NCBI GenBank assembly: GCA_009777475.1
Contig: WRLU01000004.1
Span: forward strand, 8,582-72,581
Direction: 5' to 3'
DNA: 64,000 nucleotides
Source: Oscillospiraceae bacterium
GTDB lineage: Bacteria > Bacillota > Clostridia > Oscillospirales > UBA929
Shown: piece after piece, positions 5,965-29,100 of the stretch
Position numbering within the stretch: position 1 is the stretch's first letter
Layout of the letters: every line of letters starts with the position of its first letter
Program-made: the position numbers and the translations under genes
Notes under the pieces: generated by a model
Databases searched by the model: none
Seen by the model: the letters and a program-made list of their open reading frames with translations, nothing else
Told to the model about the DNA's origin: nothing

Positions 5965-5969
5965 TTTTG

Positions 5970-11386: not shown

Positions 11387-11423
11387 TTTTTTAAACAGAG
11401 GAAAATAAAAAAATAAAAAAGGC

Positions 11424-11625: not shown

Positions 11626-11646
11626 TTGAATGGAGGTGCGTTACTC

Positions 11647-12165
11647 ATCGGCAAAATAGCTCATCAAATCAACGAAGAAATCCGGGACAAGGAGGTGCGT
11701 CTTATAGGGGACGATGGTGCCCAGCTTGGCATTGTAAAATCCTCTGATGCGCTCAGGGCGGCTTTTGAAAAGGACTTGGACCTAGTAAAAATTGCCCCCC
11801 AGGCTGCCCCTCCCGTATGCCGGATTATGGACTATGGGAAATTCCGCTTTGAGCAATCTAAAAGAGAAAAAGAGGCTCGTAAAAATCAGCATGTGGTTGC
11901 CGTCAAAGAAATCCGTTTGTCCTCTGGGATTGATGTGCATGACTTTGAGTTTAAGCTGCGCAATGCACAAAAGTTCCTCAAAGATGGTGATAAGGTAAAG
12001 GTTTCAGTGCGTTTTCACGGTCGTCAGCTTGTCCATGTTGGCCTGGGTGAAAAGCAGCTCCTGAAATTCGCTGAAAGCTGTGAAGAATTAGCCTCCATAG
12101 AAAAACCGCCCATTCTTGAGGGTCGCCGGATGTCAATGTTTTTGACTCCGAAACCAAATAAATAG
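11647..12165 (+). CDS. infC: translation initiation factor IF-3
   Basis: [23 protein letters not shown]... is a typical IF-3 sequence. The only RBS (GGAGGTG, 11632-11638) lies downstream of the ORF-track TTG (11626). The likely start is therefore a non-AUG codon, ATC 11647 (or ATA 11656), as is usual for infC. The exact start is uncertain. Confidence 0.85.
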
Positions 12166-12214
12166 GACACTTTTCAAAAAGTTTCCCATCAGAAGAAAGG
12201 AGATTCCTCGAACT

Positions 12215-12412
12215 ATGCCTAAAATGAAAACTCATTCCGGAGCGGCAAAGCGTTTTACGCTGACCAAATCCGGTAAGGTAAAACGCAAACAGGCTGGGCT
12301 CCGCCACCAGCACCACATGAAGCCCACTAAGCGCAAGCGCCATCTCCGTCAGGGGGCGTATGCCGATGTGACCAATGAGAAAAACGTCAAGTACCTTATC
12401 CCATACAAATAA
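12215..12412 (+). CDS. rpmI: 50S ribosomal protein L35
   Basis: [14 protein letters not shown]... is the canonical L35 sequence. RBS AAGGAG. Confidence 0.95.
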
Positions 12413-12437
12413 GACATAGAACAGGAGGTATCGTAAT

Positions 12438-12794
12438 ATGGCCAGAATCAAAGGCGCGGTTAATACGCGCAAGAGGCACAAGAAAATATTAAAGCTCGCA
12501 AAAGGGTACTGGGGTGCCAGATCAAAGCTTTTCCGCACGGCAAATCAAGCAGTTATGAAAAGCCTGCAGTACGCCTATATAGGCCGGAAACAGAGAAAAA
12601 GAGATTTCCGCCGCCTGTGGATTACACGAATTTCTGCGGGGGCCCAAGCTTCAGGGATGAATTATTCCCGCTTTATGCACGCCTTGAAGGTACAGGGGAT
12701 TCAGCTTAACCGCAAAAGCTTGGCGGAGCTTGCCGTACACGATAAGGCGGCATTTGCCGCCCTCGTAGAAAAAGCTAAGACTGTCAAAGCGTAA
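12438..12794 (+). CDS. rplT: 50S ribosomal protein L20
   Basis: [29 protein letters not shown]... is the canonical L20 sequence. RBS AGGAGG. Confidence 0.95.
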
Positions 12795-12807
12795 AACCGC
12801 AACAAGC

Positions 12808-12839
12808 GCACCCGGCTCCAATGAGCCGGGTGTGTTTTC
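12808..12839 (+). terminator. intrinsic terminator after rplT
   Basis: GCACCCGGCTC/caat/GAGCCGGGTG hairpin followed by TGTTTTC. Confidence 0.7.
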
Positions 12840-12902
12840 GGTATGCTGATAAATTTGCCTTAGGCCAAGCCGAAGTCGGCAAGGCTTAACAATTAATTAG
12901 CA

Positions 12903-13760
12903 TCAGCCTTTCAAGGTAGAGGCGATTGTGGCGCGGGCGTTTGCAAAAAAAGCTTCCCTTGGTTGAAATTCTAAGAGGATTTCAGTGCCGTATTTTTGAT
13001 AAAACAACTCTAGCATTTCACTTTCGTTCAACCCTTTTTCACTCATGCAGGTAATAAATTTGTGGCACGAGGTGTTCGCCTCAAATGATTTGTCAAAAAA
13101 TCCATCAGTGCATTCATCCCTTACAACACCCCTGTGAGGTAACGACAGATGCCTATGAGGTATGCCCCGGCATTTTTCAATTGAGCGTATTGTGTCGTCA
13201 TAGCTGGTGAGATAACAGGGATATACGGTTCCGTCCGGCATCAAAACTCCCAGTGTTTCGTTTACAATCAGCAATTCAAGCTCAGGCACGAAAAAACTGA
13301 GTGAATCTCTTGTGTGTCCCGGAGTTTCCAGCACTTGAACAGATAGGCCTCCTAAGCCGATAGCATCGCCCTCTTTTAGGATAATATCCGCCTGAAACTC
13401 ATTGTCATCGTATGACATATCACATTCGATACCGTGTGTTTTTGCGGCAACAGCCGATAATTCGCGGAAAATTCTACGGGGAGTATCTTTCAGCAAAACG
13501 GCAGCTCCGGCTTGGGATGTGGCGATTTTCGTATCCGGCCATTCCCTGCGAAAAAATGGCAAAGCACCGATGTGGTCATAATGGGTGTGGCTGAAAAATA
13601 TGTAATCAAGAGGCCGGTCTTGAAGGGCGGTTTTTACGCTTTGTATAGTTTTTTCGGCGCAAAATACCATTCCGCAGTCAATGATGGCGGTAAAGCCATC
13701 ACCTATAAGCAGGTTGCCCTCGCTGGAGCTGTGGGCAATACAGTTGACATATCTGTGCAT
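12903..13760 (-). CDS. MBL-fold metallo-hydrolase
   Basis: HTHYDH metallo-beta-lactamase motif (FFSHTHYDHIGA) plus downstream H/D ligands. GGAGG RBS. Starts 21 nt after the upstream gene. Confidence 0.8.
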   Translation of the reverse strand: MHRYVNCIAHSSSEGNLLIGDGFTAIIDCGMVFCAEKTIQSVKTALQDRPLDYIFFSHTHYDHIGALPFFRREWPDTKIATSQAGAAVLLKDTPRRIFRELSAVAAKTHGIECDMSYDDNEFQADIILKEGDAIGLGGLSVQVLETPGHTRDSLSFFVPELELLIVNETLGVLMPDGTVYPCYLTSYDDTIRSIEKCRGIPHRHLSLPHRGVVRDECTDGFFDKSFEANTSCHKFITCMSEKGLNESEMLELFYQKYGTEILLEFQPREAFFANARATIASTLKG

Positions 13761-13781
13761 TTTTTCACCTCCTAGACTGCC

Positions 13782-15443
13782 CTAAGCTGTTTCCGTTTTA
13801 GACTCTGACTCAAGTCCTAACAGGGATATTGACTGCTCGCGCAACAGAAACTTTTGGATTTTTCCGCTTGCGGTAAGAGGGAATGAGTCGGTAAACAGCA
13901 CATGGCTCGGAACCTTATGCTTGGCTAAGCTTTTGTTGACATATCCCTTGATGTCATTTTCGTCAGCTTCTGCCCCATCCTTCAGTATGACAAAAGCGCA
14001 GGCCTCTTCGCCGTATCTTTTAGAAGGTATAGCAACAACGGCCACATCCTTTACGGCCTCATGGGTATATATGAAATCCTCTATTTCTTTTGGAAAGAGG
14101 TTTTCCCCGCCCCGGATAATCATATCTTTAATGCGTCCGGTTATTTTGTAGTAACCATCTGCATCAACGGTGGCAAGGTCGCCTGTATGCAGCCAGCCGT
14201 CGCTGTCTATCGCCGATTTTGTGGCTTCAGGCAACTTGTAGTAGCCCTTCATCACGTTATAGCCCCTTACACAAAACTCGCCGGCAACCCCAGAGGGAGC
14301 CTCCCTGCCTGTTTCAGGATCAATAATTTTTGTTTCCATAAACGGCAAAGTCTTTCCAACGGTGTGGACACGCTTTTCCAAACTGTCATCTACAGTCGTT
14401 TGAGTGCATACGGGCGAAGCTTCAGTCTGGCCGAAGGCTATAGTTATCTCCTTCATGTTCATTTTGTCAACAACATCCTGCATGACCTTGATTGGGCATG
14501 GCGAACCCGCCATAATACCGGTGCGAAGGGTTGAGTAGTCATACTTGCTAAAATCACGGTGTTCTAAAATCCCTATAAACATAGTAGGGACACCGTGTAC
14601 TGCCGTACACCTTTCGTACTCAACAACATGCATGACCTTCATTGGGGTATACCAAAGCAATGGGAGCATAGTGCTGCCGTGTGTTACGCAGGCCATAATT
14701 GCCAAAACCATTCCGAAGCAATGGAAGAACGGTACCGGTATACATAGACGGTCATTTTCAGTGAATTTCATGCAATCGCCGATGGAAAGCCCATTGTTCA
14801 CTATATTCTTATGGGTCAGCATAACACCCTTGGGGAAACCGGTGGTGCCGGATGTGTACTGCATATTTATAACATCATCGGGATCAAGGCTTGCTTTTCT
14901 TTTTTTGTATTCAGTTGAGGAAACAAGCACGCCGAAATTTTCAATATCGTTCCAGTGATACATTCCCTTGTAGTGATTATCAAAAGACACAACTATTTTA
15001 AGCTCCGGCAATTTATCTGACAACAACGCCCCTTTTTTGCAGTTTTTGAGTTCGGGGCAAATGGAGTAAAGTGCTTTTTCACAGTCTATATCCTTCAGTC
15101 CGTCACAGATAAACAGGGCTTTGCTGTCAGACTGCTTGAGCAAAAATTCCAGTTCCTGTTCCTTGTAGTTGGTGTTGACCGTTACTAAAACAACGCCTAT
15201 TTTTGCCGTGGCAAACATAAGAACCAGCCACTGCGGATAATTAGTCGCCCAAACTGCCGCATGGTCGCCCTTTTGAAGACCCATCCCCATAAGGCCCTTG
15301 GCAATGCGGTCAACTTTGTTGTTAAATTCATACCATGTCTTGTCAAACTCCATTTCAATGTACTTAACTGCCTGATGGGTAGGGAATTTTTGCGCGGTTT
15401 CCTCCAATGCCTCTCCGATAGTAATTTTTCTCGGTTCATTCAT
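13782..15443 (-). CDS. AMP-dependent acyl-CoA synthetase/ligase (FadD-like)
   Basis: AMP-binding motifs YTSGTTGFPKGV, GQTE, TGDLATVDADGYYKITGRIKD. Its start overlaps the MFS stop (ATGA). Confidence 0.85.
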   Translation of the reverse strand: MNEPRKITIGEALEETAQKFPTHQAVKYIEMEFDKTWYEFNNKVDRIAKGLMGMGLQKGDHAAVWATNYPQWLVLMFATAKIGVVLVTVNTNYKEQELEFLLKQSDSKALFICDGLKDIDCEKALYSICPELKNCKKGALLSDKLPELKIVVSFDNHYKGMYHWNDIENFGVLVSSTEYKKRKASLDPDDVINMQYTSGTTGFPKGVMLTHKNIVNNGLSIGDCMKFTENDRLCIPVPFFHCFGMVLAIMACVTHGSTMLPLLWYTPMKVMHVVEYERCTAVHGVPTMFIGILEHRDFSKYDYSTLRTGIMAGSPCPIKVMQDVVDKMNMKEITIAFGQTEASPVCTQTTVDDSLEKRVHTVGKTLPFMETKIIDPETGREAPSGVAGEFCVRGYNVMKGYYKLPEATKSAIDSDGWLHTGDLATVDADGYYKITGRIKDMIIRGGENLFPKEIEDFIYTHEAVKDVAVVAIPSKRYGEEACAFVILKDGAEADENDIKGYVNKSLAKHKVPSHVLFTDSFPLTASGKIQKFLLREQSISLLGLESESKTETA

Positions 15444-16753
15444 GATTGCACCTCCGAATTATTTTTCTGCCCGGCATTAGCCGCGGCACGTTCACGCTTG
15501 GACATTCCTTTTAAGATAAGCATCATAATAATCCCTGCACCGGCACAGCAGGATGCGATTACAAAAGCCGGAAACATCAGGCTTATGTCCTGGGCTTTGT
15601 CGGCAATATCCTTGTAATAGCCGCTGATTTGCGATGAAAGAATCGCTCCTGAGCCAAATCCCAAAAGTACAAAGCCATAGTTTGTCGCCATATGCTTTGC
15701 CCCAAACAGGTCGGCGGTCAGCGATGGGAATGTAGACAGCAGCCCTCCATAGAAGAAGCCTATGAACGCGATCAGGACAAAAATCCAAATTCCTGGCACA
15801 ACGGTAACAAACAGTGGCAGGACAGCTCCGCCGGACAGCAGTATTATGATGGTGTTTTTTCTCCCGATTCTATCGGAAATCACGCCCCAAATCAAGCGCC
15901 CGAGGGAATTAAACATGGAAACAGCCAAAACTCCCCAGTAGGCAATGTTATCAGCAAGCCCTTTGTCCAGAGCGATAGGCTTTGCAAAGCCTATCATCAT
16001 TAGTCCGCCCATACATGCCAGTATGAAGGTGACAACAATGAGATAAAATTTTGTGCTTTTTAGCATTTCAGAAGGGGTATACTCCATCACCGATTTTACC
16101 ATGCTTGATTTGGCTGATGAAGCAACGGCAGCGGAGGCAAATCCTTCGGGGGGATTTTTCATAAAAAGGCTTCCTATAGTGCATACGAACAGGAAAATTC
16201 CGCTGAGTATCAGGAAGGTTTTTTGCTCCCCTGTGCCGGTGCCGCCGAAAGTCTTGATCAACTTTTCTATTACAGGGGTAAACACCACACCGCCAAAGCC
16301 AAGTGCTGATACGATGATGCCTGTGACAAGCCCTTTTTTGTGAGGGTACCATTTCTGGGCACAGGCAATTGTTGTAGAATATGTAAAGCCCATGCCGACC
16401 CCTCCCATCAATCCGTATGTCACCCATAGTGACCATGAGGTATTTGCCGTTACAAAAGAGGCCAAGAAAAATCCGGCACTTAGTATGATGCCGCCGATGA
16501 AAACAACGAACCGGGTGGAATACTTAGCGGCGAGTTTGCCTCCGAATACGCTCCCAATAGTTAGCGTGGCGAGCAAGAGGGAAAAAGTGAGCTGGGCTTT
16601 GGCGTTGTCCTTGTCAAAGATGCTTTGCGCGATGCCGTTTTGGAATAAGCTCCAAAGGTAGGCAATGCCGAGGGTTAGCTGGATTGCGATTGCTGCGATG
16701 ACCGGGTAGATTCCTGTTTTTTTCGCGGGATAGCTTTTTGCTTGGGATTTCAT
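15440..16753 (-). CDS. MFS transporter (oxalate/formate antiporter-like family)
   Basis: 12-TM MFS profile. ATG at 16753 is preceded by AAGAGGAGG. The ORF-track start at 16798 lies inside the upstream hairpin. Confidence 0.8.
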   Translation of the reverse strand: MKSQAKSYPAKKTGIYPVIAAIAIQLTLGIAYLWSLFQNGIAQSIFDKDNAKAQLTFSLLLATLTIGSVFGGKLAAKYSTRFVVFIGGIILSAGFFLASFVTANTSWSLWVTYGLMGGVGMGFTYSTTIACAQKWYPHKKGLVTGIIVSALGFGGVVFTPVIEKLIKTFGGTGTGEQKTFLILSGIFLFVCTIGSLFMKNPPEGFASAAVASSAKSSMVKSVMEYTPSEMLKSTKFYLIVVTFILACMGGLMMIGFAKPIALDKGLADNIAYWGVLAVSMFNSLGRLIWGVISDRIGRKNTIIILLSGGAVLPLFVTVVPGIWIFVLIAFIGFFYGGLLSTFPSLTADLFGAKHMATNYGFVLLGFGSGAILSSQISGYYKDIADKAQDISLMFPAFVIASCCAGAGIIMMLILKGMSKRERAAANAGQKNNSEVQS

Positions 16754-16771
16754 GGGGTATTCCTCCTCTTT

Positions 16772-16819
16772 GGCAAAAGAAAAACACACCTGCCGCATCC
16801 TTACCGGTTGCTGCAGGTG
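16772..16819 (-). terminator. terminator-like hairpin between the sORF and the MFS gene (possible attenuator)
   Basis: Minus strand: CACCTGC (16819-16813), 19-nt loop, GCAGGTG (16793-16787), followed by TGTTTTTCTTTT. Lies about 20 nt upstream of the MFS RBS. Confidence 0.45.
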
Positions 16820-16838
16820 CGCTCTTTCACCGTTTTTT

Positions 16839-16961
16839 TTACACTTTCAGCGCAACGCATCGAACAACCGGGCAACCGATAATAATAAGCAGACCAAGGA
16901 GCGAAGCCGGAAGGGCTTCGTTAATAAATAGGTTGCTTATCAAACGATTGCGATTGCTCAT
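16839..16961 (-). CDS. 40-codon small ORF (MSNRNRLISNLFINEALPASLLGLLIIIGCPVVRCVALKV), leader peptide or small membrane protein
   Basis: Too short for the ORF track. ATG at 16961 lies 6 nt after GGAGG (16972-16968) and directly downstream of a consensus promoter. Basic N-terminus and hydrophobic C-terminal half. Confidence 0.4.
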   Translation of the reverse strand: MSNRNRLISNLFINEALPASLLGLLIIIGCPVVRCVALKV

Positions 16962-16990
16962 GGCGAACCTCCAAAACTGTATTGAAACGT

Positions 16991-17019
16991 ATTATACACA
17001 GCTGACACGGCACTGTCAA
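16991..17019 (-). promoter_or_regulatory. perfect-consensus SigA promoter
   Basis: Minus strand: TTGACA (17019-17014), exactly 17 nt, TATAAT (16996-16991). Confidence 0.7.
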
Positions 17020-17225
17020 GAGAAATTTAAAAATTTTTTTTCTCTCCCCGGGTGAAAGCACAGCCACCGCCCCTATGAAGGGGAAATGATAGCCTACCGG
17101 GTGAGCTTCCTGTAAACTGTTGGTGAAGGACTAACAAGCACAGGAAGCAGCCGATGAGCCAGCTAGAGCATAGCACAGCGGCAAGAAAGAGGGCACCCTC
17201 CCCGGCTTAAATCCATGGGCAGGAC

Positions 17226-17621
17226 CTAAATTACACCTGTTCTGTTCACCACAATCCATTTGCTTATATAATTCTTCACCCGGTTGCGGAGAACACTGGG
17301 CAGTATAGGCTTGGTCACAACATCAATCGCACCTAAAGTCAAGGCGTGAGACAACACATCCTCATCATTCCAGGAGGTTAAAAGCAAAATCGGAATCGTT
17401 TCCCATTCAGGGTTCCCCATTAATTTCTTCATTGCGTCAAGGCCGCTGATGTCAGGCATTTCAATATCAAGCAGGATCATGTCAGGTTTTGTCTTTTCGA
17501 GCATTTGGAACATCTTTTCAGCTGTTGGCATAGTAAGGACCCGATACTCCGACTCCAGTGCCAATGCCGCGGCCGTAAGGTTTGAATCATTGTCATCCAC
17601 GATAAAAATCAATTTTTGCAT
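17226..17621 (-). CDS. single-domain response regulator (receiver only, CheY-like)
   Basis: IFIVDDND...DMILLDIEMPDISG...VVTKP receiver signature. No output domain. AAGGAGAGG RBS. Confidence 0.85.
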   Translation of the reverse strand: MQKLIFIVDDNDSNLTAAALALESEYRVLTMPTAEKMFQMLEKTKPDMILLDIEMPDISGLDAMKKLMGNPEWETIPILLLTSWNDEDVLSHALTLGAIDVVTKPILPSVLRNRVKNYISKWIVVNRTGVI

Positions 17622-17731
17622 ATTGAACCTCTCCTTTTAAATTTGTGATTTTAGTGTTTTTAGGGATTATCCTTCCGCAGGAGGCATTGATAACCCTGCT
17701 TTTCATAGATTGCAGGGACACATTATAAGAA

Positions 17732-18514
17732 TTACAAAGTTCTAATCAGGCGAAGTGCTTTGTAATCCCTCAAATGCAAAGCTACTTTTTGCCTCAACAC
17801 CTCCTCGTCAATTGGTTTTACAAGAAAATCGTTCGCTCCAACTCCGAGTGCCACCGATACATGGTCAACTGTACCCTCGCTTGTCAGGAAAACAATCGGA
17901 GTTTCTTCATGTGCCGGAATTCTGCGTATGATCGGAACTAGTTCAAATCCGCTCAACACAGGCATTTTACAGTCCATCAAGAACAAATCCGGCGTTATAA
18001 CCTCTAAAAGCTTTTTCAGCTTTTCCGGCTCGGACATTGTATACACGCGATACATATCATGCAGGGCATAATTTATTGTCTGTAAAATACTAGGTGAATC
18101 ATCGACCGCCAAAATCATTGGCTTAGGGGATTCATGCCCTACAGGGTCAAGCTGGTGTTCAATGGTTTTAATGAGCTCCTCTGTAGAATAAGGCTTGAAT
18201 ACCATATCCGCCGCTCCGCTGTTCAGACCTTTTATAACACTTTCCTTATCCCTTTTGCCTGTTAGAAATATAACAGGTATATCGACAAAGCGAGTACTTG
18301 ACTTTAGCTTTTCTATGATATAATATCCGTCCTGATATGGCATATTTATATCTAGCAGTATTAAATCCGGCATGACCCCATTAAGTATTTCAAATAGTTT
18401 CTCTGCCGTTTGCGCCGGATACACCTCGTAATGACTTTTAAGCCTGTCCTTAGTCGATAGAAGGTGTAGGTTAATGTCGTCAACCAAAATAATTTTCCTG
18501 CGATTTCCTTCCAT
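17732..18514 (-). CDS. tandem-receiver response regulator (REC-REC, no output domain)
   Basis: Two complete receiver domains (ILVDD...DLILLDINMP...VFKP and ILAVDD...DLFLMDCKMP...LVKP). ATG at 18514 lies 2 nt after the kinase stop codon. The longer ORF-track start overlaps the kinase gene. Confidence 0.85.
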   Translation of the reverse strand: MEGNRRKIILVDDINLHLLSTKDRLKSHYEVYPAQTAEKLFEILNGVMPDLILLDINMPYQDGYYIIEKLKSSTRFVDIPVIFLTGKRDKESVIKGLNSGAADMVFKPYSTEELIKTIEHQLDPVGHESPKPMILAVDDSPSILQTINYALHDMYRVYTMSEPEKLKKLLEVITPDLFLMDCKMPVLSGFELVPIIRRIPAHEETPIVFLTSEGTVDHVSVALGVGANDFLVKPIDEEVLRQKVALHLRDYKALRLIRTL

Positions 18515-18516
18515 AA

Positions 18517-21500
18517 TTATTCCCCCTTGTTTTCTGTTAGCTTTTCTGCAATTTGCGAAAAGTTTACCAAATCTACATTGTCTTGAAGCCATTGCACCAA
18601 ACCGTTGTCAGACTGATACGCATACTTATTTATATCCTTCATTGCCGCATCAACACCATCCATATCATAGACCTGGCAGGCGGCAAGCAATCTTGACAGC
18701 AAGCCGGGATCCGGCTTGTCCTTTCGCGGCTTGGATTCCACGGCGGCGATATTTTTGAGCAGGCTGTCAATATCCGTGATAAAGGCCTTGAGCCTTTCAA
18801 CAAAGGCCGGATTGCGCTTTCTTATCAAGTCGAGCTTGCCTTCCTTGGCGGCACCCTCAAGTTTTTTGGCAAGCTCCCCTATTTCATCGGCAAAAATATC
18901 AAAGCTCATGCCCTTGATGCCATGAACTGATATTTCATAAGCCCGCAAGCTGCTTTCGTCCACATTTTCCAGCGTTTCCATTGCAGCCCCCGCTCCCGCC
19001 AGGTATGACCGCAGGATCTTTAGATAAATTTCCTCATCACCGTCAAACTTATTTAGGCCCTTGGCTAAATCAATCCCATCAATTTTTGTGTTTTTTATCT
19101 GCATACAGCTACCGGCGATTCTTTCTGCCAGCTTCCCGGCAGCAATCCCCGCCTCTTCAAAATCACTGTGCAATGCCATCTCCTTAATTTTGCCTAATTC
19201 CTCGCGGGTTTCCTTGGAGCATTCTTTAATTTCACTTAAAAGCTCCAGCACACCCTTCCTGTCAAATGCGGCACAAAGCTCTTGCAGTACTCCCAGCTTC
19301 TCTGATAATCCTGCACAGTCAGTTCCGTTAACATAGTCCGTGCGAATATCTTTTTCAACAGCCTCAAGCAATCGGTGCAGCCTCTCTAAAAACTCGGGGC
19401 CGAATCCATTTATTGTTGCCTTGTTTTCATCCCTTCCGGCTGTTTCCAGCTTGTATGCAAGCTCAGACATCTCCTCCTGCCCTATGTTGCCCAATGAGCT
19501 TTTGATGCCATGAACATTCACCACAAAGCTCCTCATGCCCTCTTGTGTTTCAATTTTGCCGTTTTGGAAAAAATCTTCTAAAACTGAAACTGTTTTGTGT
19601 GCATCACGAATAAACGATTCTATCAGGAGATGATCGGCTTTAAGCGGCCCCGCGGACGATTTGACCGGGCGGCTGCGGCTCCTTGCCTCCTCAATGACCT
19701 CTGCTGTCTGCTTGTCCCGCACAAAACGGTTTAAAACGGCATTCAGCTGACGCACGTCTATCGGCTTGGATATGAAGGCATCAAATCCGTTTTGAAGGAA
19801 TATATCCGCCTGCCCTGCCACAGCATTGGCAGTCAGGGCGACAATGGGCAGGGTGTAGCCCATTTCGCGCAGGATCTTTGCTGCCTCAATGCCATCCATC
19901 TCAGGCATCATGTGATCCATGAAGATAATGTCATACGCAGTGCCGTGCCTGACCCTGTCAATCGATTCCTGCCCGCTCATAACCGAGTCTATTTTCAAAC
20001 CGTAGGGCTTTAGCAATCCGCCTGCCACATACAGATTTGTTTCCACATCGTCAACCAGCAGCACGCTGCCGTAGGGCATGGGGTCGCGCACAATCTGGGA
20101 GCGTTTTTTATCGACAATCTGGGTTAGCTTGAAGTTCCGCAGGCTCTCGGCAAGCTCCCTGCCCATTACCGCAGAGCCTACAGCCTTTTGTGGCAGCCGC
20201 ACAACAAACAGCGTACCATCGCCTACATTGCTTTCGGCATGAATTGTTCCGTCCATCAGGCCAACCAAGCTTTGGGTTATGGCAAGACCCAGGCCTGTAC
20301 CCTGTACTGTTTTGCACTCTTCGCGGTAAAACCTGGAGTATTCGTCAAACATACGGCTCACCTGATCCTGGGTCATTCCATACCCGGTATCGCGCACCGT
20401 CAAAACCATTGTTATCCAATCATCGGACATTGGCTCGAAGGTAACGGAAAGCGTGACCTTGCCGGCTGCCGTATACTTAAAGGCGTTTGACAGAAGATTG
20501 TTGAGTATCTGCTTAATCCTCAGCTCATCGCCGATGAGCTTTTCGGGAAGATTTTCGTCAATTTGAAGCTCAAACTCTATATGCTTATCGCCGATTCTCA
20601 TTATATTGAGCTGTGTGGTATCGTTAATCAGGCTGGCGGAGGTATATTCATCAGATAATATGTCAAGCTTGCCCGCCTCTATTTTGGAAAAGTCTAGAAT
20701 GTCATTAATTATGCCAAGCAGCAAATCGCATGAATTGTATATGCGTTCCAGCCCTTCCAGTATCTCAGGCGGAAGGTTGTCGTTCTCCACTAAAATTGCG
20801 ATAATGCCCCATATGGCGTTCATGGGTGTGCGTATCTCGTGGCTCATGTTTGCCAAAAAGGTGCTCTTTGCCTGGCTGGCGGCTTCACTTTCCGCCTGCT
20901 GCTTCATTATCTGCTCCAGCCTGAGCATGCTGTTACGTATGCCATCAACCGAATCGTTTATGCGCGACTGATCACCTGGGAACCGGCGCAGGGGGGCATC
21001 ATGCATCCCATTCACAATACAGGAAATGCAATCAAGCGTTTCATCAATGGATGAACTATAATGCTCCAGAATAGAATTAACCACATTTGCCGCTGCCGCA
21101 AATGAGCCCAAATACTTTGAAGCGTCAATCCTGACCATGTTATCGCCGTCAGCACTGAAGGCACAGGCGGTGCTGTGCACATCCCGGACAAACATGTTGA
21201 CGATATTGGTTACACCAAAAAATGACTTGTATAAAACTGCTATTTCAGTGTCTATTTCAGTGTCTATTTCAGTGTCTATTTCAGTGTCTATTTCAGTGTC
21301 TATTTCAGTGTCTATTTCAGTGTCTATTTCAGTGTCTATTTCAGTGTCTATTTCAGTGTCTATTTCAGTGTCAAAATTTCCAATTGAGATATTATTTGCC
21401 ACATTAGCAAGAGCTGCCATCGGCTTGGAAATTGAATTTGAAATAACTGTCGACAATATTGCCGATGCTATGGCCACAAAAATAGATGTGGCTACCAGGA

Positions 21501-22113
21501 GCAGCAGCAAAAAGTAGGAAGCCTTTTCGGCATCAGCCTGCTTGTCCTTCATATTGTCAGTTACCATGTCGATCATTTCGACCAGCCCGCTGATGAGCGG
21601 GTTCATAACTGTCATTGCTTTGTAAATCTCCGCTTTTGCCTCAGCCTGTGATATCTCGTTCTCCTTCATAAGCTGGGCAAACGGCACCAGATGCTCCTCG
21701 TTGTAGGCCTGCGCCCCGGAAATCATGCCGTCAATTCTTTCTATGTGTTCTTGATACATGTCCCGGTCAATTATTTTGTCCCTGTGCAAATTTTCCTTTG
21801 CCTCATTCATTTTTGAAACAAAGTCATCCATGGCCGACAGTGCCATTTCAAGACGGTCATCCAATGCCCGCGGATTCCCGGCAAGCAGTGCCATAAAAAG
21901 AAAGTCGCGCCTCGCCGACATAATCTGGTATTTTGCCTCGGCATAATAAGAAAACCGGGCGGTGGGATGCTCAATAACATAAGAAAATATATTTCTAGTA
22001 TTAATCAAAGCTATAATTCCAACAGCCGCCACTATTGTACTCAGTGCAAACACAATGGAAAACGCAATGCGTAGCATTTGCTTAATCTTCATATTTCTTA
22101 TTTTTTTCCGCAC
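18517..22113 (-). CDS. hybrid sensor histidine kinase: 2 TM, helical extracytoplasmic domain, HAMP (with DTEI x11 insert), HisKA, HATPase_c, REC, 2 x Hpt
   Basis: H-box FLANMSHEIRTPMNAI. N/G boxes (NLLSNAFKYT, DTGYGM, GTGLGL). Receiver IIFMDHMMPEMDG. Two Hpt motifs (VHGIKSSLGNIG and VHGIKGMSFDIF). GTG start 10 nt after GGGAGG. Confidence 0.9.
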   Translation of the reverse strand: MRKKIRNMKIKQMLRIAFSIVFALSTIVAAVGIIALINTRNIFSYVIEHPTARFSYYAEAKYQIMSARRDFLFMALLAGNPRALDDRLEMALSAMDDFVSKMNEAKENLHRDKIIDRDMYQEHIERIDGMISGAQAYNEEHLVPFAQLMKENEISQAEAKAEIYKAMTVMNPLISGLVEMIDMVTDNMKDKQADAEKASYFLLLLLVATSIFVAIASAILSTVISNSISKPMAALANVANNISIGNFDTEIDTEIDTEIDTEIDTEIDTEIDTEIDTEIDTEIDTEIDTEIAVLYKSFFGVTNIVNMFVRDVHSTACAFSADGDNMVRIDASKYLGSFAAAANVVNSILEHYSSSIDETLDCISCIVNGMHDAPLRRFPGDQSRINDSVDGIRNSMLRLEQIMKQQAESEAASQAKSTFLANMSHEIRTPMNAIWGIIAILVENDNLPPEILEGLERIYNSCDLLLGIINDILDFSKIEAGKLDILSDEYTSASLINDTTQLNIMRIGDKHIEFELQIDENLPEKLIGDELRIKQILNNLLSNAFKYTAAGKVTLSVTFEPMSDDWITMVLTVRDTGYGMTQDQVSRMFDEYSRFYREECKTVQGTGLGLAITQSLVGLMDGTIHAESNVGDGTLFVVRLPQKAVGSAVMGRELAESLRNFKLTQIVDKKRSQIVRDPMPYGSVLLVDDVETNLYVAGGLLKPYGLKIDSVMSGQESIDRVRHGTAYDIIFMDHMMPEMDGIEAAKILREMGYTLPIVALTANAVAGQADIFLQNGFDAFISKPIDVRQLNAVLNRFVRDKQTAEVIEEARSRSRPVKSSAGPLKADHLLIESFIRDAHKTVSVLEDFFQNGKIETQEGMRSFVVNVHGIKSSLGNIGQEEMSELAYKLETAGRDENKATINGFGPEFLERLHRLLEAVEKDIRTDYVNGTDCAGLSEKLGVLQELCAAFDRKGVLELLSEIKECSKETREELGKIKEMALHSDFEEAGIAAGKLAERIAGSCMQIKNTKIDGIDLAKGLNKFDGDEEIYLKILRSYLAGAGAAMETLENVDESSLRAYEISVHGIKGMSFDIFADEIGELAKKLEGAAKEGKLDLIRKRNPAFVERLKAFITDIDSLLKNIAAVESKPRKDKPDPGLLSRLLAACQVYDMDGVDAAMKDINKYAYQSDNGLVQWLQDNVDLVNFSQIAEKLTENKGE
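19453..20870 (-). repeat. paralogous high-identity segment, copy A (kinase core, REC and first Hpt of the 1198-aa kinase)
   Basis: Collinear with 23685-25102 at a constant offset of 4232 nt. Contains perfect runs, for example 75 nt at 19708-19782 = 23940-24014, and about 113 nt near 20025-20140 with one mismatch. Confidence 0.9.
21241..21372 (-). repeat. perfect tandem repeat, 11 copies of a 12-nt unit (plus strand tatttcagtgtc; minus strand GACACTGAAATA = Asp-Thr-Glu-Ile)
   Basis: Direct reading: 21241-21372 is exactly 11 identical units with no substitution, in frame with the kinase, encoding (DTEI)11. Confidence 0.98.
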
Positions 22114-22177
22114 TCCTTTTCAGCCTCCCTTCTCTATATCTGCCCGCGGGCATAGAACCGTATACCTCCGGATCCAT

Positions 22178-23329
22178 CTAATACTTATGCGTTAACGCCT
22201 TCAGCTCCTCCATCCAGTCATAATCGTCAAAAACGCCTTCCTCCACTCCCCAGCCATCCACTACCTTCCCGATATTTGTCATGTTGGTTGAGTAGTCAAG
22301 CTTAGAGGTCTCCACAAGCTGTGCATCAAGGTAATATGTATCGGGCGATTCCTCACCGGCAAATTTCATGGCAAGCAGCCTCATGTTTGATTTGCCGATC
22401 AGGCTGGGGTCTACTGCCGCCGTGGAGACCCATATGTCCTGATTGGTACGCATTAGCTCCATATCGTTGTCGGAAATATCAATCGACATAATTTTAATGT
22501 CCCGCCGTCCGGCCTCCAGAAGGGCATCAAGGCAACCCTTGGCAAGCTCGTCATAATTTCCCCATATAGCATCAACCGAACCCTCTGGAATTTTTTTAAG
22601 CAACTTGCCAAACGCCTTTTTAGCACTTGCGCGGGGCTGGGAGCCGTCCGTCAGATCAATCGCATGAGCCTCTTCAATTTTCCCCTCCCTTACATATCTG
22701 TCAAACACAGTTTTGCGGTTATCAAGGGGGAGTATGTCAGGACTCATATGGGTGCGCACAACCCTGACCGGCGAGTGGTCGAAATAATCAGTAATAGCAT
22801 TAAGCGACAATTCCGCCAGCTTGAAGTCCTCCTGGGCAGTGCTTGTGACCCCGGGCAGGAGCTCAGTGCCAATGTTGTCATTTTTATAGGGGGTTGAGTC
22901 AAATGTCACTACCTTTATGCCCTTTTCAATTGCGGGAAGAAGCGCATCGTATGCATATCCGCTAACATGCGAGAGGATAATGCCGTCATAATCGCCGGCA
23001 ATAGCCTGGGCTATATATTCCCTGCACAGGCCGTTGTCTCCGTTGGTGATAAAGGTATCCACCTCAAATCCAAGGGAAACCCCCTCGACAATACAGCCGG
23101 AAAGAAACAGCTTGGTATGGTCGGAATTAGAGAGGTTGCGGATAACCGCTACCTTAACGGCACCGTCCTCCATCTGGCCGGGCATTACACGGCGTAATAC
23201 ATCTGCAGCCTGGGCGGGGCGGGTCGAATTTATTTCCTCGGGTACAGGGGAAACGCCGGAGGGTGTACACCGTGAGGAGGATAAGACAAGCATACTCACG
23301 GCAACTAAAAATAAGACCATTTTTTTCAT
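22178..23329 (-). CDS. periplasmic-binding-protein type I (sugar/LacI-type) lipoprotein, no adjacent permease
   Basis: Signal peptide with Cys (VLSSSRC). PBP1 fold pattern (KVAVIRNLSNSDH..., GIILSHVSG..., IKVVTFDS). ATG at 23329 lies 9 nt after AAGGAG. Confidence 0.8.
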   Translation of the reverse strand: MKKMVLFLVAVSMLVLSSSRCTPSGVSPVPEEINSTRPAQAADVLRRVMPGQMEDGAVKVAVIRNLSNSDHTKLFLSGCIVEGVSLGFEVDTFITNGDNGLCREYIAQAIAGDYDGIILSHVSGYAYDALLPAIEKGIKVVTFDSTPYKNDNIGTELLPGVTSTAQEDFKLAELSLNAITDYFDHSPVRVVRTHMSPDILPLDNRKTVFDRYVREGKIEEAHAIDLTDGSQPRASAKKAFGKLLKKIPEGSVDAIWGNYDELAKGCLDALLEAGRRDIKIMSIDISDNDMELMRTNQDIWVSTAAVDPSLIGKSNMRLLAMKFAGEESPDTYYLDAQLVETSKLDYSTNMTNIGKVVDGWGVEEGVFDDYDWMEELKALTHKY

Positions 23330-23342
23330 CAAATCATTCTCC

Positions 23343-25763
23343 TTACTTCAGCCTTTCCATCAGGCATTCAGCCGCAATCCCTGCCTCTTCAAACTCACTA
23401 TGTATCACAAGATCTTTAATCCTGTCAAGCCCTTCTCTCGTTTCCCTGGAGCATTCCTTTATGCCGCTTAAAAGCCCTAATACGCCTTTTCTGTCATAAT
23501 CGGCACACAGCCCCTGAAGCTTAGTCAATGCCGCCTTCAATTCCTCACCATCGGTACCATCGGCGTGTTCCGGGTGAATTTCCTTTTCATACTCCTCGCA
23601 AATCCGGCGCAGCATCTCAAAAAAATCCGGGCCGGATTCATTTATTGTCATTAAATCCACATTGCGTCCTGCCAGCTCTAGTTTATATGCAAGCTCAGAC
23701 ATCTCCTCCTGCCCTATGTTGCCCAATGAGCTTTTGATGCCGTGAACAGCCACAACAAAGCCCTTCAAGCCGTCCTCCGTTTCAATCCCGATGTTTTGGA
23801 ACAGATTTTCTAACAACGTAATTGTTTTTCGTGCATCGCGTACAAATGATTCTATAAGGAGCGGGGCGAAATCGGTTTGCCCTCCGCTTGCCTTGCCGGG
23901 ATGGCTCCGGCTCCGCGCCCTCTCAATGACCTCCGGCGGCTGCTTGTCCCGCACAAAACGGTTTAAAACGGCATTCAGCTGACGCACGTCTATCGGCTTG
24001 GATATGAAGGCATCGAAGCCATTTTGTAAAAACAAATCTGCCTGCCCTGCCACGGCATTGGCAGTCAGGGCGACAATGGGCAGGGTGTAGCCCATTTCGC
24101 GCAGTATTTCGGTTACCTCAATGCCATCCATCTCAGGCATCATGTGATCCATGAAAATAATGTCATATTCCTCTCCGCCCCTGACCTTTTCAATAGAGGC
24201 CTTCCCGCTCATAACCGAATCTATTTTCAATCCGTAAGGCTTAAGCAACCCATTTGCCACATACAGATTTGTTTCCACATCGTCAACCAGCAGCACGCTG
24301 CCGTAGGGCATTGGGTCGCGCACAATCTGGGAGCGTTTTTTATCGACAATCTGGGTTAGCTTGAAGTTACGCAGGCTTTCGGCAAGCTCTGGTCCAAGAA
24401 TTTCAGGACCTACAAGCTTTTGGGGCAATTGCACCTCAAACAGCGTTCCTTCTCCCTGTTTGCTCTCGACTTGAATTGTTCCGTCCATCAGGCCAACCAA
24501 GCTTTGGGTTATGGCAAGCCCCAGGCCTGTCCCCTCGACTGTTTTGAACTCCTCGCGATAAAATCTAGAATATTCGTCAAACACGCTCTCAACTTGTTTG
24601 TCTGTCATTCCGTATCCGGTATCGCGTACTCTCAAAACCAGTGTCGCCCACCCCTCTGATGGAATGGCTGAGGCAATGGAAAGCGTGACCTTGCCAGCTG
24701 CCGTATACTTGAAGGCGTTTGACAGAAGATTGTTGAGTATCTGCTTGATCCTCAGCTCATCGCCGATGAGCTTTTCGGGAAGATTTTCGTCAATTTGAAG
24801 CTCGAACTTTATCTGTTTATCACCTATTCTCATCATGTTAAGCTGTACTGTATCGTTAATCAGGCTGGCGGCAGGGTACAATGTAGGCACAATATCCATT
24901 TTACCTGCCTCTATTTTAGAAAAATCAAGAATGTCATTGATTATGCCAAGCAGTAAATCGCATGAATTATACACACGGACCAAGGCATCCAGTGTCCCTC
25001 TGGGAAGCGTTTCATCCTGTATCAGCATCTCGGTAATTCCCAATATGGCGTTCATGGGTGTGCGTATCTCGTGGCTCATGTTTGCCAAAAAGGTGCTCTT
25101 TGACTTATTAGCAATCTCAGCGGCATCATGTGCCTTACGGAGCTTATAGCCGGATATGACCAATGCGGCCAAATCGGCAAGGGAGGCGGCAAAGCTTTGC
25201 TCAATTATAGTCCATTCGCGTTCTTCGGGATATTTTTCACATCTATTCTGTTCGACACAGACAACCCCAACCATCTTATCCCCTATGCGAATGGGTGCGT
25301 CCAGCAGGGCACACAAATCTGGGTCATAGTCTTCAAGCAGACTGGATAATATGTCTGATTTTCTGATGTTGTTGGTGACAACTAAGCGTTCATTTTCGAG
25401 CATAGCTGCGTATTTTTCGCGACAACTAAGGCTAAAGTCTTCCTTAACGGTGAATTCATCATCGTAAATATCATATGAGGAAATGTTTTTTAGTGTTGAC
25501 CGGTCATCGGTTATCTGCCATATGCTGATACCCCGCACACCCAGAGCCTTGCAGCCGTTTAATGCGATCAAATTGGCGGGAGCCACCAAATCCCCTGTCG
25601 ACATTATGTTTGAACGAGTAATTTCAGCTAATGTGCCTGAGAGCTTATCTGCGTATTCATAATCGGCAAGCCGCCCGGACAAATCTTTTTTTGACTTGAT
25701 TCTAATGTAGCACAATATGGAGGTAGCAACAAGGATCAAGGTTATAATCAACGCATATTTCAC
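23343..25763 (-). CDS. hybrid sensor histidine kinase: 1 TM, GAF-like domain, HisKA, HATPase_c, REC, Hpt
   Basis: The H-box, N/G boxes, receiver and Hpt (VHGIKSSLGNIG) are nearly identical to those of the downstream kinase. The N-terminal 220 aa are different (single TM plus GAF-like region IRIGDKMVGVVCVEQ). GTG start after GAGGGAG. Confidence 0.9.
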   Translation of the reverse strand: MKYALIITLILVATSILCYIRIKSKKDLSGRLADYEYADKLSGTLAEITRSNIMSTGDLVAPANLIALNGCKALGVRGISIWQITDDRSTLKNISSYDIYDDEFTVKEDFSLSCREKYAAMLENERLVVTNNIRKSDILSSLLEDYDPDLCALLDAPIRIGDKMVGVVCVEQNRCEKYPEEREWTIIEQSFAASLADLAALVISGYKLRKAHDAAEIANKSKSTFLANMSHEIRTPMNAILGITEMLIQDETLPRGTLDALVRVYNSCDLLLGIINDILDFSKIEAGKMDIVPTLYPAASLINDTVQLNMMRIGDKQIKFELQIDENLPEKLIGDELRIKQILNNLLSNAFKYTAAGKVTLSIASAIPSEGWATLVLRVRDTGYGMTDKQVESVFDEYSRFYREEFKTVEGTGLGLAITQSLVGLMDGTIQVESKQGEGTLFEVQLPQKLVGPEILGPELAESLRNFKLTQIVDKKRSQIVRDPMPYGSVLLVDDVETNLYVANGLLKPYGLKIDSVMSGKASIEKVRGGEEYDIIFMDHMMPEMDGIEVTEILREMGYTLPIVALTANAVAGQADLFLQNGFDAFISKPIDVRQLNAVLNRFVRDKQPPEVIERARSRSHPGKASGGQTDFAPLLIESFVRDARKTITLLENLFQNIGIETEDGLKGFVVAVHGIKSSLGNIGQEEMSELAYKLELAGRNVDLMTINESGPDFFEMLRRICEEYEKEIHPEHADGTDGEELKAALTKLQGLCADYDRKGVLGLLSGIKECSRETREGLDRIKDLVIHSEFEEAGIAAECLMERLK
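23685..25102 (-). repeat. paralogous high-identity segment, copy B (806-aa kinase)
   Basis: See copy A. Mosaic of perfect runs and diverged patches. Confidence 0.9.
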
Positions 25764-25844
25764 GCAAACATCTCCCTCTTATGCACAGGATTTCCCTCAA
25801 GCGGATACCACAAGACAACACTCCGATTCTTCGATTCCTTCACC

Positions 25845-25872
25845 ATTATACACGTTTACAGAAAAAATTCAA
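25845..25872 (-). promoter_or_regulatory. SigA-type promoter candidate of the kinase operon
   Basis: Minus strand: TTGAAT (25872-25867), 16-nt spacer, TATAAT (25850-25845). Lies about 80 nt upstream of the GTG at 25763. Confidence 0.5.
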
Positions 25873-26194
25873 GCCCCCTTAGCCGTGTGCCACGGCAATT
25901 TAGTTTTGTAATTTTTGCAGTTCTCAATGTAGAGGATGCCGTCCTCGGCATCCTGCAAACCCGCATTGCACCGTTCTGGAGCGGTAGGTTGATGGCGGCG
26001 TACCCTACAAACGGTTACGAAACTAAATCGCCGTGGCCGTGTGCTGACAAAAAACCGCAGAAACACCCTGCCGTCCTGTTGGTTTGCCCCAAAGCGGCGG
26101 GGCGATTATTAGATATTTATTTCGCCGGACACGCCAGGACCGCCGGGGGATGGGCGGCGACAGGCGATGGGGACGGGCTATGCTGCTTGTCTAA

Positions 26195-29100
26195 TTAGGC
26201 TTCCTCGGAAAATGCTCCGGAAATCATCAGCTTAATCCTGTTTAACTGATTTACTTCACTGGCTCCCGGGTCATAGTCGATAGGCACTATATTGGATTGA
26301 GGGAAAAGTTCGCGGAGCTTACGAAGCATTCCCTTGCCGGTGACATGGTTTGGCAGGCAGGCAAAGGGCTGGACACATATGATGTTAGGCACTCCGTTTT
26401 CAATAAGCTCCACCATTTCTCCGGTCAAAAGCCAGCCCTCGCCACATTGGTTGGCAACGCTTAACACCTCGCTTGCCTTTTCGGCGATCACTCCGATAGG
26501 TGCCTCAGGGATAAAACGGAGAGAGTTTTTTAGGTGCTTTTTCACTGTGTTTTCATACTGGTACACAAGCCTGATGATAAGCCCCATAATACGCGCGGTC
26601 TTTCCCGAGGTTCCCAAAATCTCGTGCTTAACAATGTCGTTCATAAAGCAGTACTGCAAAAAACCCAGCAAGCCCGGTATAACCGCTTCGCAGCCCTCCT
26701 CTTCAATTACTGTTACGGCATTGTTGTTGGCATCCGGGTGAAATTTTACTAAAATTTCACCAACCAGACCCACTCTAGGCTTACGCGGAATATCCAATAA
26801 CGGAAGCTCTTCAAAGTCAGCTATAATGCCCTGTGCCATAGCCGCGAACCTCATTGGCGCAACACCTGAAAATGATTCAGTACAGCGGTCAAGCCATATG
26901 CGGTACAGCCCATTTGCTGAGCCGGGGCTTTTTTCATATGGGCGGACACGAAGCAAAACGCTTTGCAAAAGGTCGCCGATTATTAAGCATTTTAGTGTTG
27001 CATCAATGAGAGCCGGAGTGAATTTGAATCCCGGGTTCTTCTCAATTCCCCCAACGCTTAAAGACACTATGGGAATGTGGGGCATACCCGCCTCCCTCAG
27101 GGCGCGGCGCATGAGGGCAACGTAGTTTGTGGCCCGACAGCCGCCTCCCGTCTGGGTTAGAAAAATTGAGATGTTGTCAGTGTCATATTTCCCGGAAAGC
27201 ACGGCACGCATGAGTTGCCCTATCACAACAATTGTGGGATAGCAGGCATCGTTATTGACAAATTTCAACCCTGCATCAATATCGGCGTGCTCTACCTCCT
27301 TCAAGATATTCACGCTATATCCGGCTCGCTGTAAGGCTGCCTCTACCAGTTCAAAATGCACAGGTGACATCTGAGGAGCCAAAATAGTGTGCTTCCCCTT
27401 CATTTTCTTAGTGAATTCAGCTCGTTTGTACACATAACCGTTGTGCGTTCCAATGAGTGCGTCCTTAGCCTTGCGGCTTGAGAGCGAAGCGGCCAATGAT
27501 CGCATGCGAATCCGCGCCGCCCCAAGCGATGATGTTTCATCCATCTTCAGTACAGTATAAACTTTTCCGGCTGCACTTAATATTTCTTGCACCTGATCCG
27601 TTGATATGGCATCAAGCCCGCAGCCGAAGGAATTAATTTGCACCAGCTGCAAATTAGGCTCACCGGCAACCGTGTTTGCCGCATCATAAAGCCGGGTGTG
27701 GTACATCCACTGGTCAAACACCCGCAAAGGACGTTGTGCCGGGGACAGCTCCGCGATTGAATCCTCTGTCAGAACGGCAAAACCCAGCGAGGAAATCATC
27801 CTTGGCAGTCCGTGATGTATTTCGGGGTCGATATGATACGGTCTGCCAGCTAAAACAATTCCGGTTTTGCCATTTTCCCTGAGCCATGTCAAAACCTCAC
27901 TCCCGCGTTTGGCTTGATGAGCGAAAAAAGTCCGCATTTCATCGAATCCGGCATTCAGTGCTGCCTTAATCTTAGCGCGGGGGATATTCCACCGGGATAG
28001 TGCTTCCGTCAGCGTGTCAGCCATTTTATCCCTGTGCTGCAAAGATAAAAAAGGCTTCAGGAATATAATATTATTTTGGGTTAAAATATCCATATTTGCG
28101 TGTATAACCTCGGGATATGACTGTACGATAGGGCAGTTGAAGTAATTGTTTGCTGCTTTGTTTTCCTTGCGTTCATAAACCACGCATGGGTAGAAAATTG
28201 AATCTATGCCCTGCTTCACTAAGTCGTGAATATGCCCATGAACCAGCTTGGCGGGATAGCAAATGCTTTCAGAGGGTATAGTTGACATTGCCTGCTCAAA
28301 GACCGAATGGTCGGAATGGCGGGATAACACCACCGAAAATCCCAATTCTGTGAAAAAAGTATGCCACAGTGGGTAATTTTCATAGATATTCAACGCTCTC
28401 GGCAATCCGATTTTGCCGTAAGGGGCGTTTTTTTCGTCTAGTGAAGAGTATGAAAATAGCTTTTCATATTTTTCCTCTACTAAATTAGGCAACCCGGAGT
28501 TTTCGGGCTTACCTTCCCCTTTCTCACAGCGAAAACCGCTTAACAGCCTACGCTTGCCTGAAAATTCGGAAACCGTTAGTTTACAGGCGTTAGCACAGCC
28601 TGTGCAGACAACAGTCTGCACCTTTTGAGGCAGTATGCCAGAAAGCTCCTTTTTTGCAAGCACTGCTGAGCGTGAACCCGGCCGATAATCGTCCATAGCA
28701 AGCAGGGCGGCACCATACGCACCCATCAGCCCTGCAATATCAGGGCGTATAACATGTCTCCCGGCGACAAGCTCAAACGCCCTTAATATGGCATTATTCA
28801 AAAACGTACCACCCTGAACCAATACTGTTTTACCCATTTGCTCCGGGCTTTGAAGCTTTATTACCTTGAAGAGCGAATTGCGTACCACCGAATAACTCAA
28901 CCCGCAGGAAATATCGCCTACCCCCGCACCTTCCTTTTGAGCCTGTTTAACCCTGGAGTTCATAAAGACGGTACAGCGGGTGCCTAAATCCACCGGATGC
29001 TCAGATTCCAGAGCCTTTTGGGCGAAACTGTCGGTAGAGAGTCCTAATGTTTCGGCAAACGAGCTGATAAATGACCCGCAGCCGGAGGAGCAGGCTTCAT

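Follow-up and report, generated by a model that had tools for sequence, protein, structure and literature searches.

The HAMP domain is among the commonest bacterial signal-conversion modules, and its transmission mechanism is debated between gearbox rotation and a dynamic bundle. The connector that joins its two helices is regarded as short and tightly packed. What becomes of such a connector when it is made of a tandem repeat? This question is raised by a 64,000-nucleotide stretch of an Oscillospiraceae genome (contig WRLU01000004.1, positions 8,582 to 72,581; the whole stretch is called the window here, and coordinates refer to it), in which a hybrid sensor histidine kinase gene on the minus strand carries a perfect 12-bp array between the two helices of its membrane-proximal HAMP domain. 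On balance we favor, by a cautious judgement, the reading that a young, slippage-generated, in-frame 12-bp minisatellite now forms the connector of this domain, that it is tolerated, and that it probably shifts the set-point of the kinase modestly.

Positions 21241-21372 consist of 11 identical 12-bp units with no substitution, as direct reading, a regular-expression count and Tandem Repeats Finder agree. The unit is TATTTCAGTGTC on the plus strand and GACACTGAAATA on the coding minus strand. Tandem Repeats Finder reports 21240-21372 with a period of 12, 11.1 copies, 100% matches, no indels and a score of 266; base 21240 also matches the unit, so that the periodic stretch extends over 133 nt. 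The next-best tandem array in the window scores 56. By exact count the array unit was not found elsewhere in the window, where the chance expectation for a given 12-mer is 0.008 on both strands together. The 12-mers adjoining the array share only 2-4 of 12 positions with the unit, and the array is thus without degenerate edge copies. No inverted repeats or RNA families were found at the array site, and the codon usage of the unit is ordinary. The units run head to tail, their length is divisible by 3 and they lie inside an intact open reading frame (ORF; 18517-22113, minus strand), as befits a coding minisatellite, where they encode (DTEI)11, residues 248-291, with a net charge of -22. Plus-strand ORFs across the array, which would encode ISVS and LFQC repeats, were dismissed as by-products of the coding strand. 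The original prediction, made from the letters of the window, had described a perfect 11-copy in-frame array produced by recent frame-preserving slippage. The array is confirmed, and the slippage fits both the perfect identity of the copies and a unit divisible by 3. Two details had to be amended. The motifs in GNFDTEI...DTEIAV that had been taken as a native seed for slippage turn out to be copies 1 and 11 of the array itself, the true flanks being GNF and AVL, and the tract, put at 40 inserted residues, is 44 residues long, 32 above the canonical length.

The ORF around the array encodes a hybrid histidine kinase, in keeping with its earlier designation as a sensor kinase. Its order is TM1 (the first transmembrane segment), a ~160-residue extracytoplasmic helical sensor, TM2, a poly-HAMP-like region, HisKA, HATPase_c, REC, Hpt and a second Hpt-like segment. 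Matches above the Pfam thresholds were obtained to HisKA (residues 415-481, 61.8 bits), HATPase_c (528-643, 87.5 bits), Response_reg (684-794, 75.5 bits) and Hpt (830-920, 34.7 bits), all within the intact ORF. NCBIfam gave sub-threshold matches only, to BarA, TorS, LuxQ and ArcB; no equivalog cut-off was reached, and the protein is therefore treated as a generic hybrid kinase with no more specific name. The gene call at JGI begins 12 codons later, at an ATG. The parts of the gene that matter for the argument are as follows, the helices being numbered AS1 and AS2 and models from AlphaFold2 being marked AF2.

18517..22113, minus strand: hybrid sensor histidine kinase gene, 1198 amino acids from a GTG start.
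21445..21519, minus strand: predicted TM2, residues ~199-223, SYFLLLLLVATSIFVAIASAILSTV, from sequence inspection; continuous with AS1 in the AF2 model.
21382..21423, minus strand: HAMP helix AS1, residues 231-244, PMAALANVANNISI, with the invariant Pro231 at its start (alignment, AF2).
21373..21381, minus strand: start of the connector outside the repeat, G245-N246-F247, comprising the invariant Gly and the hydrophobic HR1 (alignment).
21241..21372, minus strand: repeat tract, 11 perfect GACACTGAAATA copies, (DTEI)11, the whole variable part of the HAMP connector.
21154..21240, minus strand: HAMP helix AS2 outside the repeat, residues 292-320, AVLYKSFFGVTNIVNMFVRDV... (alignment, AF2).
20914..21153, minus strand: further HAMP-like helical units between HAMP1 and the DHp domain, with a partial Pfam HAMP_N3 match (Pfam, AF2, Foldseek).
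20671..20871, minus strand: HisKA (DHp) domain with the phospho-acceptor His box SHEIRTPMNAI (Pfam).

Where the array lies within the HAMP fold was assessed by comparison with homologues. An exhaustive HMMER search of 1.84 billion representatives returned 1147 relatives. The closest, P0001, is a 760-residue hybrid kinase with 41% identity over residues 4-258, and many chemoreceptors of ~750 residues share the sensor, the HAMP and the downstream modules. Pfam finds 4HB_MCP_1 (weakly), HAMP (44-50 bits) and HAMP_N3/HAMP_2 in these homologues. Four hits, P0002, P0077, P0107 and P0128, match the repeat only and were set aside as low-complexity similarity to unrelated proteins. The segments that follow TM2 in 62 homologues were aligned with the window protein, and residues were counted between the connector Gly, present in all 62, and the Glu of the DExG motif, present in 57 of the 62. 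This G-to-E spacing was distributed as follows.

Spacing 12: 44 homologues.
Spacing 13: 6 homologues.
Spacing 14: 9 homologues.
Spacing 19-20: 3 homologues (P0010, P0011, P0012).
Spacing 44: the window protein.

The connector thus measures 12-14 residues in 59 of 62 homologues as against 44 here, which upholds, for this family, the earlier view that HAMP connectors are constrained in length. A model of the window protein with three copies has a spacing of 12, the mode of the family, so that the present allele exceeds the modal length by 8 copies, 32 residues and about -16 of extra charge. A 38-sequence alignment shows invariant columns at P231 (the AS1 start), G245 (the connector start) and E290 (the Glu of the last copy). 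The layout is that of a HAMP domain, placed after TM2, with a Pro at the start of AS1, a Gly opening the connector and a Glu at the junction of connector and AS2. P0010, P0011 and P0012 are chemoreceptors with the same sensor domain and a G-to-E segment of 19-20 residues, for example GDFELSQEDIRNVSEFSSYNDETG. Pfam called no HAMP in P0010 or P0012, the two of these that were scanned, and the three may be a subgroup of HAMP domains with naturally long connectors.

Profile scores and structure prediction locate the repeat in the same way. In the native kinase Pfam gives no HAMP match at E ≤ 0.01, short of the PF00672 gathering score of 25 bits. When fragments were scored, the three-copy version reached 17.9 bits over profile positions 2-44, and versions with 1, 2, 4 or 11 copies reached ~15 bits (14.8 for 11 copies) over AS1 only. 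P0001 passes the Pfam HAMP threshold with 44.3 bits at a position colinear with the repeat site. AF2 run from the single sequence was uninformative, with a predicted local distance difference test score (pLDDT) of 46; run with the 38-sequence alignment it gave a monomer model with a mean pLDDT of 86. In that model residues 191-243 (TM2 and AS1, continuous) and 289-320 are helical at pLDDT 83-97, with more helices downstream, and residues 244-288 are coil at pLDDT 54-58; the second helix opens at T289, inside the last copy. The best Foldseek matches to the model are the Aer2 poly-HAMP structures 4i3m, 4i44 and 3lnr (E of 2e-4 to 4e-3), and the Af1503 HAMP 2l7i superposes with a root-mean-square deviation of 1.6 Å over 50 columns. 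AF2 and Foldseek together, on a monomer model, thus return the helix-connector-helix fold of a HAMP domain. Structure prediction had been suggested with the original prediction as a check, and the outcome is that the HAMP helices are kept and the repeat appears as a low-confidence loop. The placement of the repeat between HAMP helix 1 and helix 2 is well supported, since the alignment, the colinear HAMP of P0001 and the AF2 and Foldseek results all bear it out. A short poly-HAMP array is the most fitting description of what lies between TM2 and the DHp domain.

The repeat unit itself resembles both ends of the connector it has filled. The family consensus reads G-(N/D)-(L/F)-(N/D)-(V/I)-x-I-D-T-x-x-x-D-E-(T/I/V)-G-x-L, and the roles of the hydrophobic residues HR1 and HR2 and of the DExG motif in HAMP connectors have been described (PMC3570549). 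The sequence D-T-E-I fits the N-terminal motif D-x-x-I, in which I is the second conserved connector hydrophobic, HR2, and it also fits the C-terminal motif x-E-I of the DExG junction. The first copy, following G-N-F, is predicted to play the conserved connector role with its I as the second hydrophobic anchor, and the last copy (D-T-E-I-A) is predicted to play the role of DExG and AS2 cap, supplying E290 and starting AS2. With the first and last copies providing the conserved anchors, a change of copy number at n ≥ 3 would alter only the length of the loop between them, and with two copies the connector would be 4 residues too short, for which reason that variant is predicted to be inactive. 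A possible origin of the array is suggested as well, since slippage could have been seeded in an ancestral connector of quasi-period-4 similarity (D..ID-T...DEI).

From these observations a mechanism may be proposed. Slippage would have expanded the connector to 8 copies above its modal length. In the predicted structure the middle copies would make up a flexible, acidic loop without disturbing the four-helix bundle, and this loop would lie at the start of AS2, on the membrane-proximal side of the bundle. Lengthening it would most likely cause a modest, graded shift in the stability of the HAMP bundle and through this a bias between kinase and phosphatase activity. A rough loop-closure estimate puts the cost of going from a 14- to a 46-residue connector at ~1.1-1.7 kcal/mol per subunit, and that of the step from 9 to 11 copies at ~0.2 kcal/mol. 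Costs of this size should be enough to bias a two-state signalling equilibrium, in small steps. By analogy, a long insertion in the connector need not be fatal, because the third HAMP domain of AskA carries an insertion and three homologues have spacings of 19-20. Perfect tandem arrays change copy number at high rates via slipped-strand mispairing or recombination, and this tract should be mutationally unstable; finding 9 copies in one assembly and 11 in another, as set out below, would be compatible with that. In Escherichia coli tolA the number of in-frame repeats grades function, with contractions at 6.9e-5 (PMC3477136), and tandem repeats of Mycobacterium tuberculosis change copy number at 1e-2 to 1e-3 per chromosome (PMC12817950). 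We regard the expansion as tolerated, and possibly mildly function-altering, rather than as a demonstrated contingency device.

Several points weigh against this reading. Pfam HAMP scores stay below the gathering score at every copy number, which leaves homology and structure prediction as the basis of the HAMP call. AF2 modelled a monomer, whereas a HAMP domain is a dimeric four-helix bundle. The alignment supplied to AF2 is all gaps across the insert, which leaves a disordered loop weakly founded, and the alternating polar and beta-branched pattern of the tract could instead give rise to a beta-hairpin or to cation binding. A 44-residue tract of charge -22 near the inner membrane leaflet could disrupt far more than the entropy estimate implies. 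The difference between 9 and 11 copies may be an assembly effect alone. Finally, no close orthologue that would bear on the ancestral state or on selection was found in the collections searched. A word-indexed protein search with the N-terminal 382 residues of the three-copy model and with the 163-residue sensor returned nothing, from an index apparently without this protein or close relatives. No orthologue of the N-terminal protein was found in GTDB representatives, the flank-plus-unit DNA had zero matches in genome and metagenome scans, the kinase protein had zero matches in a metagenome protein scan, and a three-unit DNA pattern had zero matches in genomes. Protein cluster look-ups found neither the 9-copy nor the 11-copy allele. 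The JGI contig described below holds the searched 24-mer exactly, yet the metagenome DNA scan missed that contig, which evidently lies outside the scanned set; zero matches in those scans are for this reason weak evidence of absence.

Other assemblies of the locus were recovered through exact look-ups of neighboring proteins, and it was found only in ENA ERZ27257348 and JGI 3300002469. The exact 11-copy protein is present on two long contigs, one of them from ENA ERZ27257348. That contig, k141_3310018 (82.7 kb), matches the window exactly, with the same 11 copies, and is probably the window's own source. The JGI contig JGI24701J34945_10001549 corresponds to window positions 14466-25987 with 0 mismatches, and its sole difference is one 24-nt gap in the array, which leaves 9 copies instead of 11. 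A second JGI contig is identical to window positions 2438-14520. Together the two contigs (11,498 and 12,083 nt) cover 23.5 kb and are 100% identical to the window apart from the 24-nt gap; they overlap by exactly 55 nt (14466-14520), which hints at a junction in a k = 55 graph and bears on how far the 9 copies can be trusted. The two copy numbers could reflect real heterogeneity or an assembly effect. A difference confined to the repeat is expected of a hypermutable tract, and it is expected of assemblers as well.

One alternative is that the array is real and fixed and that the apparent difference in copy number is an assembly artefact, a tract of about read length having been collapsed or mis-resolved by one assembler. 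We consider this an evenly balanced possibility. De Bruijn arithmetic shows that at k = 141 single k-mers reach across the whole 133-nt tract, whereas longer tracts would collapse to 12 copies, and the 11 copies are accordingly taken as read-supported and faithfully assembled in the contig with MEGAHIT-style k141 naming, the assembler being inferred from that name. The idea that 11 copies are instead the collapse value for k = 127 was rejected, given this naming of the window's apparent source contig and a tract spanned at k = 141. Nine copies (109 nt), by the same arithmetic, are the exact shortest path through the repeat cycle and the collapse value for k = 98-109, and the JGI pipeline of that period, by which 3300002469 may have been assembled, used SOAPdenovo at k 85-105 followed by overlap merging, with 150-nt reads (PMC5436645). 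That no single-nucleotide polymorphism occurs over 23.5 kb suggests one population, or even one set of reads, behind both assemblies. On the other side, the 55-nt overlap of the JGI 3300002469 contigs hints at k = 55, at which collapse would give 5 copies and the 9 copies would be read-supported. Reads of 150 nt also span a 109-nt tract comfortably.

Around the kinase, the order of genes on the same strand is a GAF hybrid kinase, a periplasmic-binding-protein-like gene, the repeat kinase, a double-receiver protein and a single-receiver protein.

23343..25763, minus strand: paralogous GAF-domain hybrid kinase, without HAMP and without the repeat (Pfam, comparison).
22178..23332, minus strand: periplasmic-binding-protein-like gene (Peripla_BP_4), immediately upstream of the repeat kinase (Pfam).
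17226..18514, minus strand: receiver-only proteins downstream, a double-REC protein of 260 amino acids (17732-18514) and a single REC of 131 amino acids (17226-17621).

The paralogue has 73% amino acid identity over 599 residues of HisKA-HATPase-REC-Hpt, and positions 19139-20870 and 23371-25102 share 80% nucleotide identity over 1.76 kb. The input modules of the two kinases are unrelated, a transmembrane sensor with poly-HAMP in one and GAF in the other, and the two genes flank the binding-protein gene; the pair looks like a duplicated transmitter with swapped sensors. By analogy with TorT/TorS and LuxP/LuxQ, the Peripla_BP_4 protein is a possible co-sensor for the kinase, and the two receiver-only proteins are likely phosphorelay partners. 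The repeat kinase ends in a second, divergent Hpt-like segment (18517-19100, residues ~1005-1198), an extension absent from the paralogue; its residues 1033-1172 contain an HGIKG motif and are 27% identical to the paralogue's first Hpt region.

Immediately upstream of the kinase cluster, 26195-30430 (minus strand) encodes a 1411-residue fusion of a BcrAD/BadFG-type ATPase (two stretches) with DUF2229, of the CoA-enzyme-activase kind. Further away, 12903-13760 (minus strand), between the genes for ribosomal protein L20 and an AMP-binding enzyme, encodes a 285-residue protein of the metallo-beta-lactamase fold with a weak match to the Anti-Pycsar Apyc1 family. SpoIIE is encoded at 44999-47347, and the threonyl-tRNA synthetase (52137-53879, minus strand) has at most 59% identity among the 80 GTDB species-representative matches listed. 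The host appears to be a poorly sampled, spore-forming lineage of Clostridia.

It is unlikely that the allele has lost function or is locked, in the sense that 32 extra acidic residues block HAMP packing while the neighboring paralogue lets the cell tolerate early decay. Such an outcome would agree with a G-to-E segment of 44 residues against 12-20 across the 62 homologues, with the failure of Pfam to detect a HAMP domain in the native protein, with the tract's net charge, with a paralogue two genes away whose transmitter is 73% identical, and with the functionally critical role of connector residues in Tsr and Aer2 (PMC3570549). Outside the tract the 1198-codon ORF is nevertheless intact with all catalytic motifs present, the invariant P, G and E are retained, and AF2 keeps the HAMP helices. 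Natural insertions also occur in the connectors of functional-looking HAMP domains, and the paralogue senses differently, through GAF, and hence is no functional duplicate. The original expectation that the insert would strongly alter or lock signalling finds no support in these results: P231, G245 and E290 are kept, both helices persist in the model, and AskA carries a connector insertion naturally. An on/off lock appears less likely than a modest graded shift.

We think it distinctly improbable that the tract is a contingency rheostat, as the original prediction had proposed, and is maintained by selection because frequent copy changes give heritable and reversible variation of the kinase set-point in a gut-symbiont population. 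The perfect 11-copy tract with a unit divisible by 3 is what such a device would need, its first and last copies fall on conserved HAMP motifs, so that any n ≥ 3 keeps the anchors, two repeat units are the only difference between two assemblies over 23.5 kb, and tolA offers a precedent for a graded effect of in-frame repeat number (PMC3477136). Against this, the only variation seen is between two assemblies, where 9 versus 11 copies could be an assembler effect, no orthologues were found that would show long-term upkeep of a variable tract, and no other such tract occurs in the 64 kb. The absence of degenerate copies fits a very recent accident equally well. The strongest form of the idea, a selected and reversible set-point dial whose unit mimics both connector motifs so that each slippage yields a folded receptor with a small kinase/phosphatase shift, is very unlikely.

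Were such a dial real, it would give a gut-symbiont population a standing spectrum of signalling sensitivities, and phase variation would have a natural, graded counterpart at the protein level, in a two-component sensor. Alleles of this kinase would lengthen the connector alone, in 4-residue steps with the anchors kept, and form a natural test of connector length and bundle stability against kinase output. If the tract varies in vivo, tandem-repeat heterogeneity would reach beyond surface and envelope proteins into the core of a two-component sensor; if it is invariant, it would still show with unusual clarity a domain that tolerates a recent minisatellite expansion or is broken by one. The locus also illustrates how short-read assemblies can mis-state repeat tracts.

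In the searchable literature, whose coverage is incomplete, no example of a tandem-repeat tract within a HAMP connector came up, nor any paper that brings together variable-number tandem repeats, histidine kinases and HAMP domains. Compared with canonical membrane-associated HAMP domains (Af1503, Tsr and Aer2 HAMP1; PF00672), the window protein is alike in that its HAMP follows TM2 and its predicted fold matches Aer2 poly-HAMP and Af1503. It is unlike them in having a G-to-E spacing of 44 instead of 12-14, in a connector made entirely of a perfect 4-residue repeat, in a DExG motif that reads T-E-I-A and in a Pfam score below gathering. An insertion is also found in AskA of Myxococcus xanthus, a solved poly-HAMP in which the connector of the third HAMP bears a conserved insertion at its C-terminal end, forming a beta-hairpin (PMC13446029). 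Both are natural connector insertions in a histidine-kinase poly-HAMP, and AskA retains its four-helix bundle; the AskA insertion, however, is short and conserved, whereas the 32 extra residues here are repetitive, acidic, lineage-specific and possibly variable in length.

The classical contingency loci of Neisseria and Haemophilus (PMC5320596, PMC12721329) likewise have perfect repeat tracts within or near genes and slipped-strand mispairing. They act mostly through frameshift or promoter spacing, with on/off or expression-level outcomes, and their switching is demonstrated, whereas the frame is never broken here and any switching of the kinase tract is hypothetical. In M. tuberculosis, longer-unit tandem repeats vary in copy number within isogenic populations, and short-read assemblies hide or distort them (PMC12817950); those are promoter repeats that alter expression and not the connector of a protein domain. 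E. coli tolA likewise has a coding repeat whose unit is a multiple of 3, and its copy number varies among strains (PMC3477136). In TolA the repeat extends an already long helical spacer in an envelope protein, while the kinase repeat lies in a short, length-conserved loop of a signal-conversion domain. Graded in-frame repeats (tolA), repeat-driven phase variation and insertions in HAMP connectors (AskA) are thus already known.

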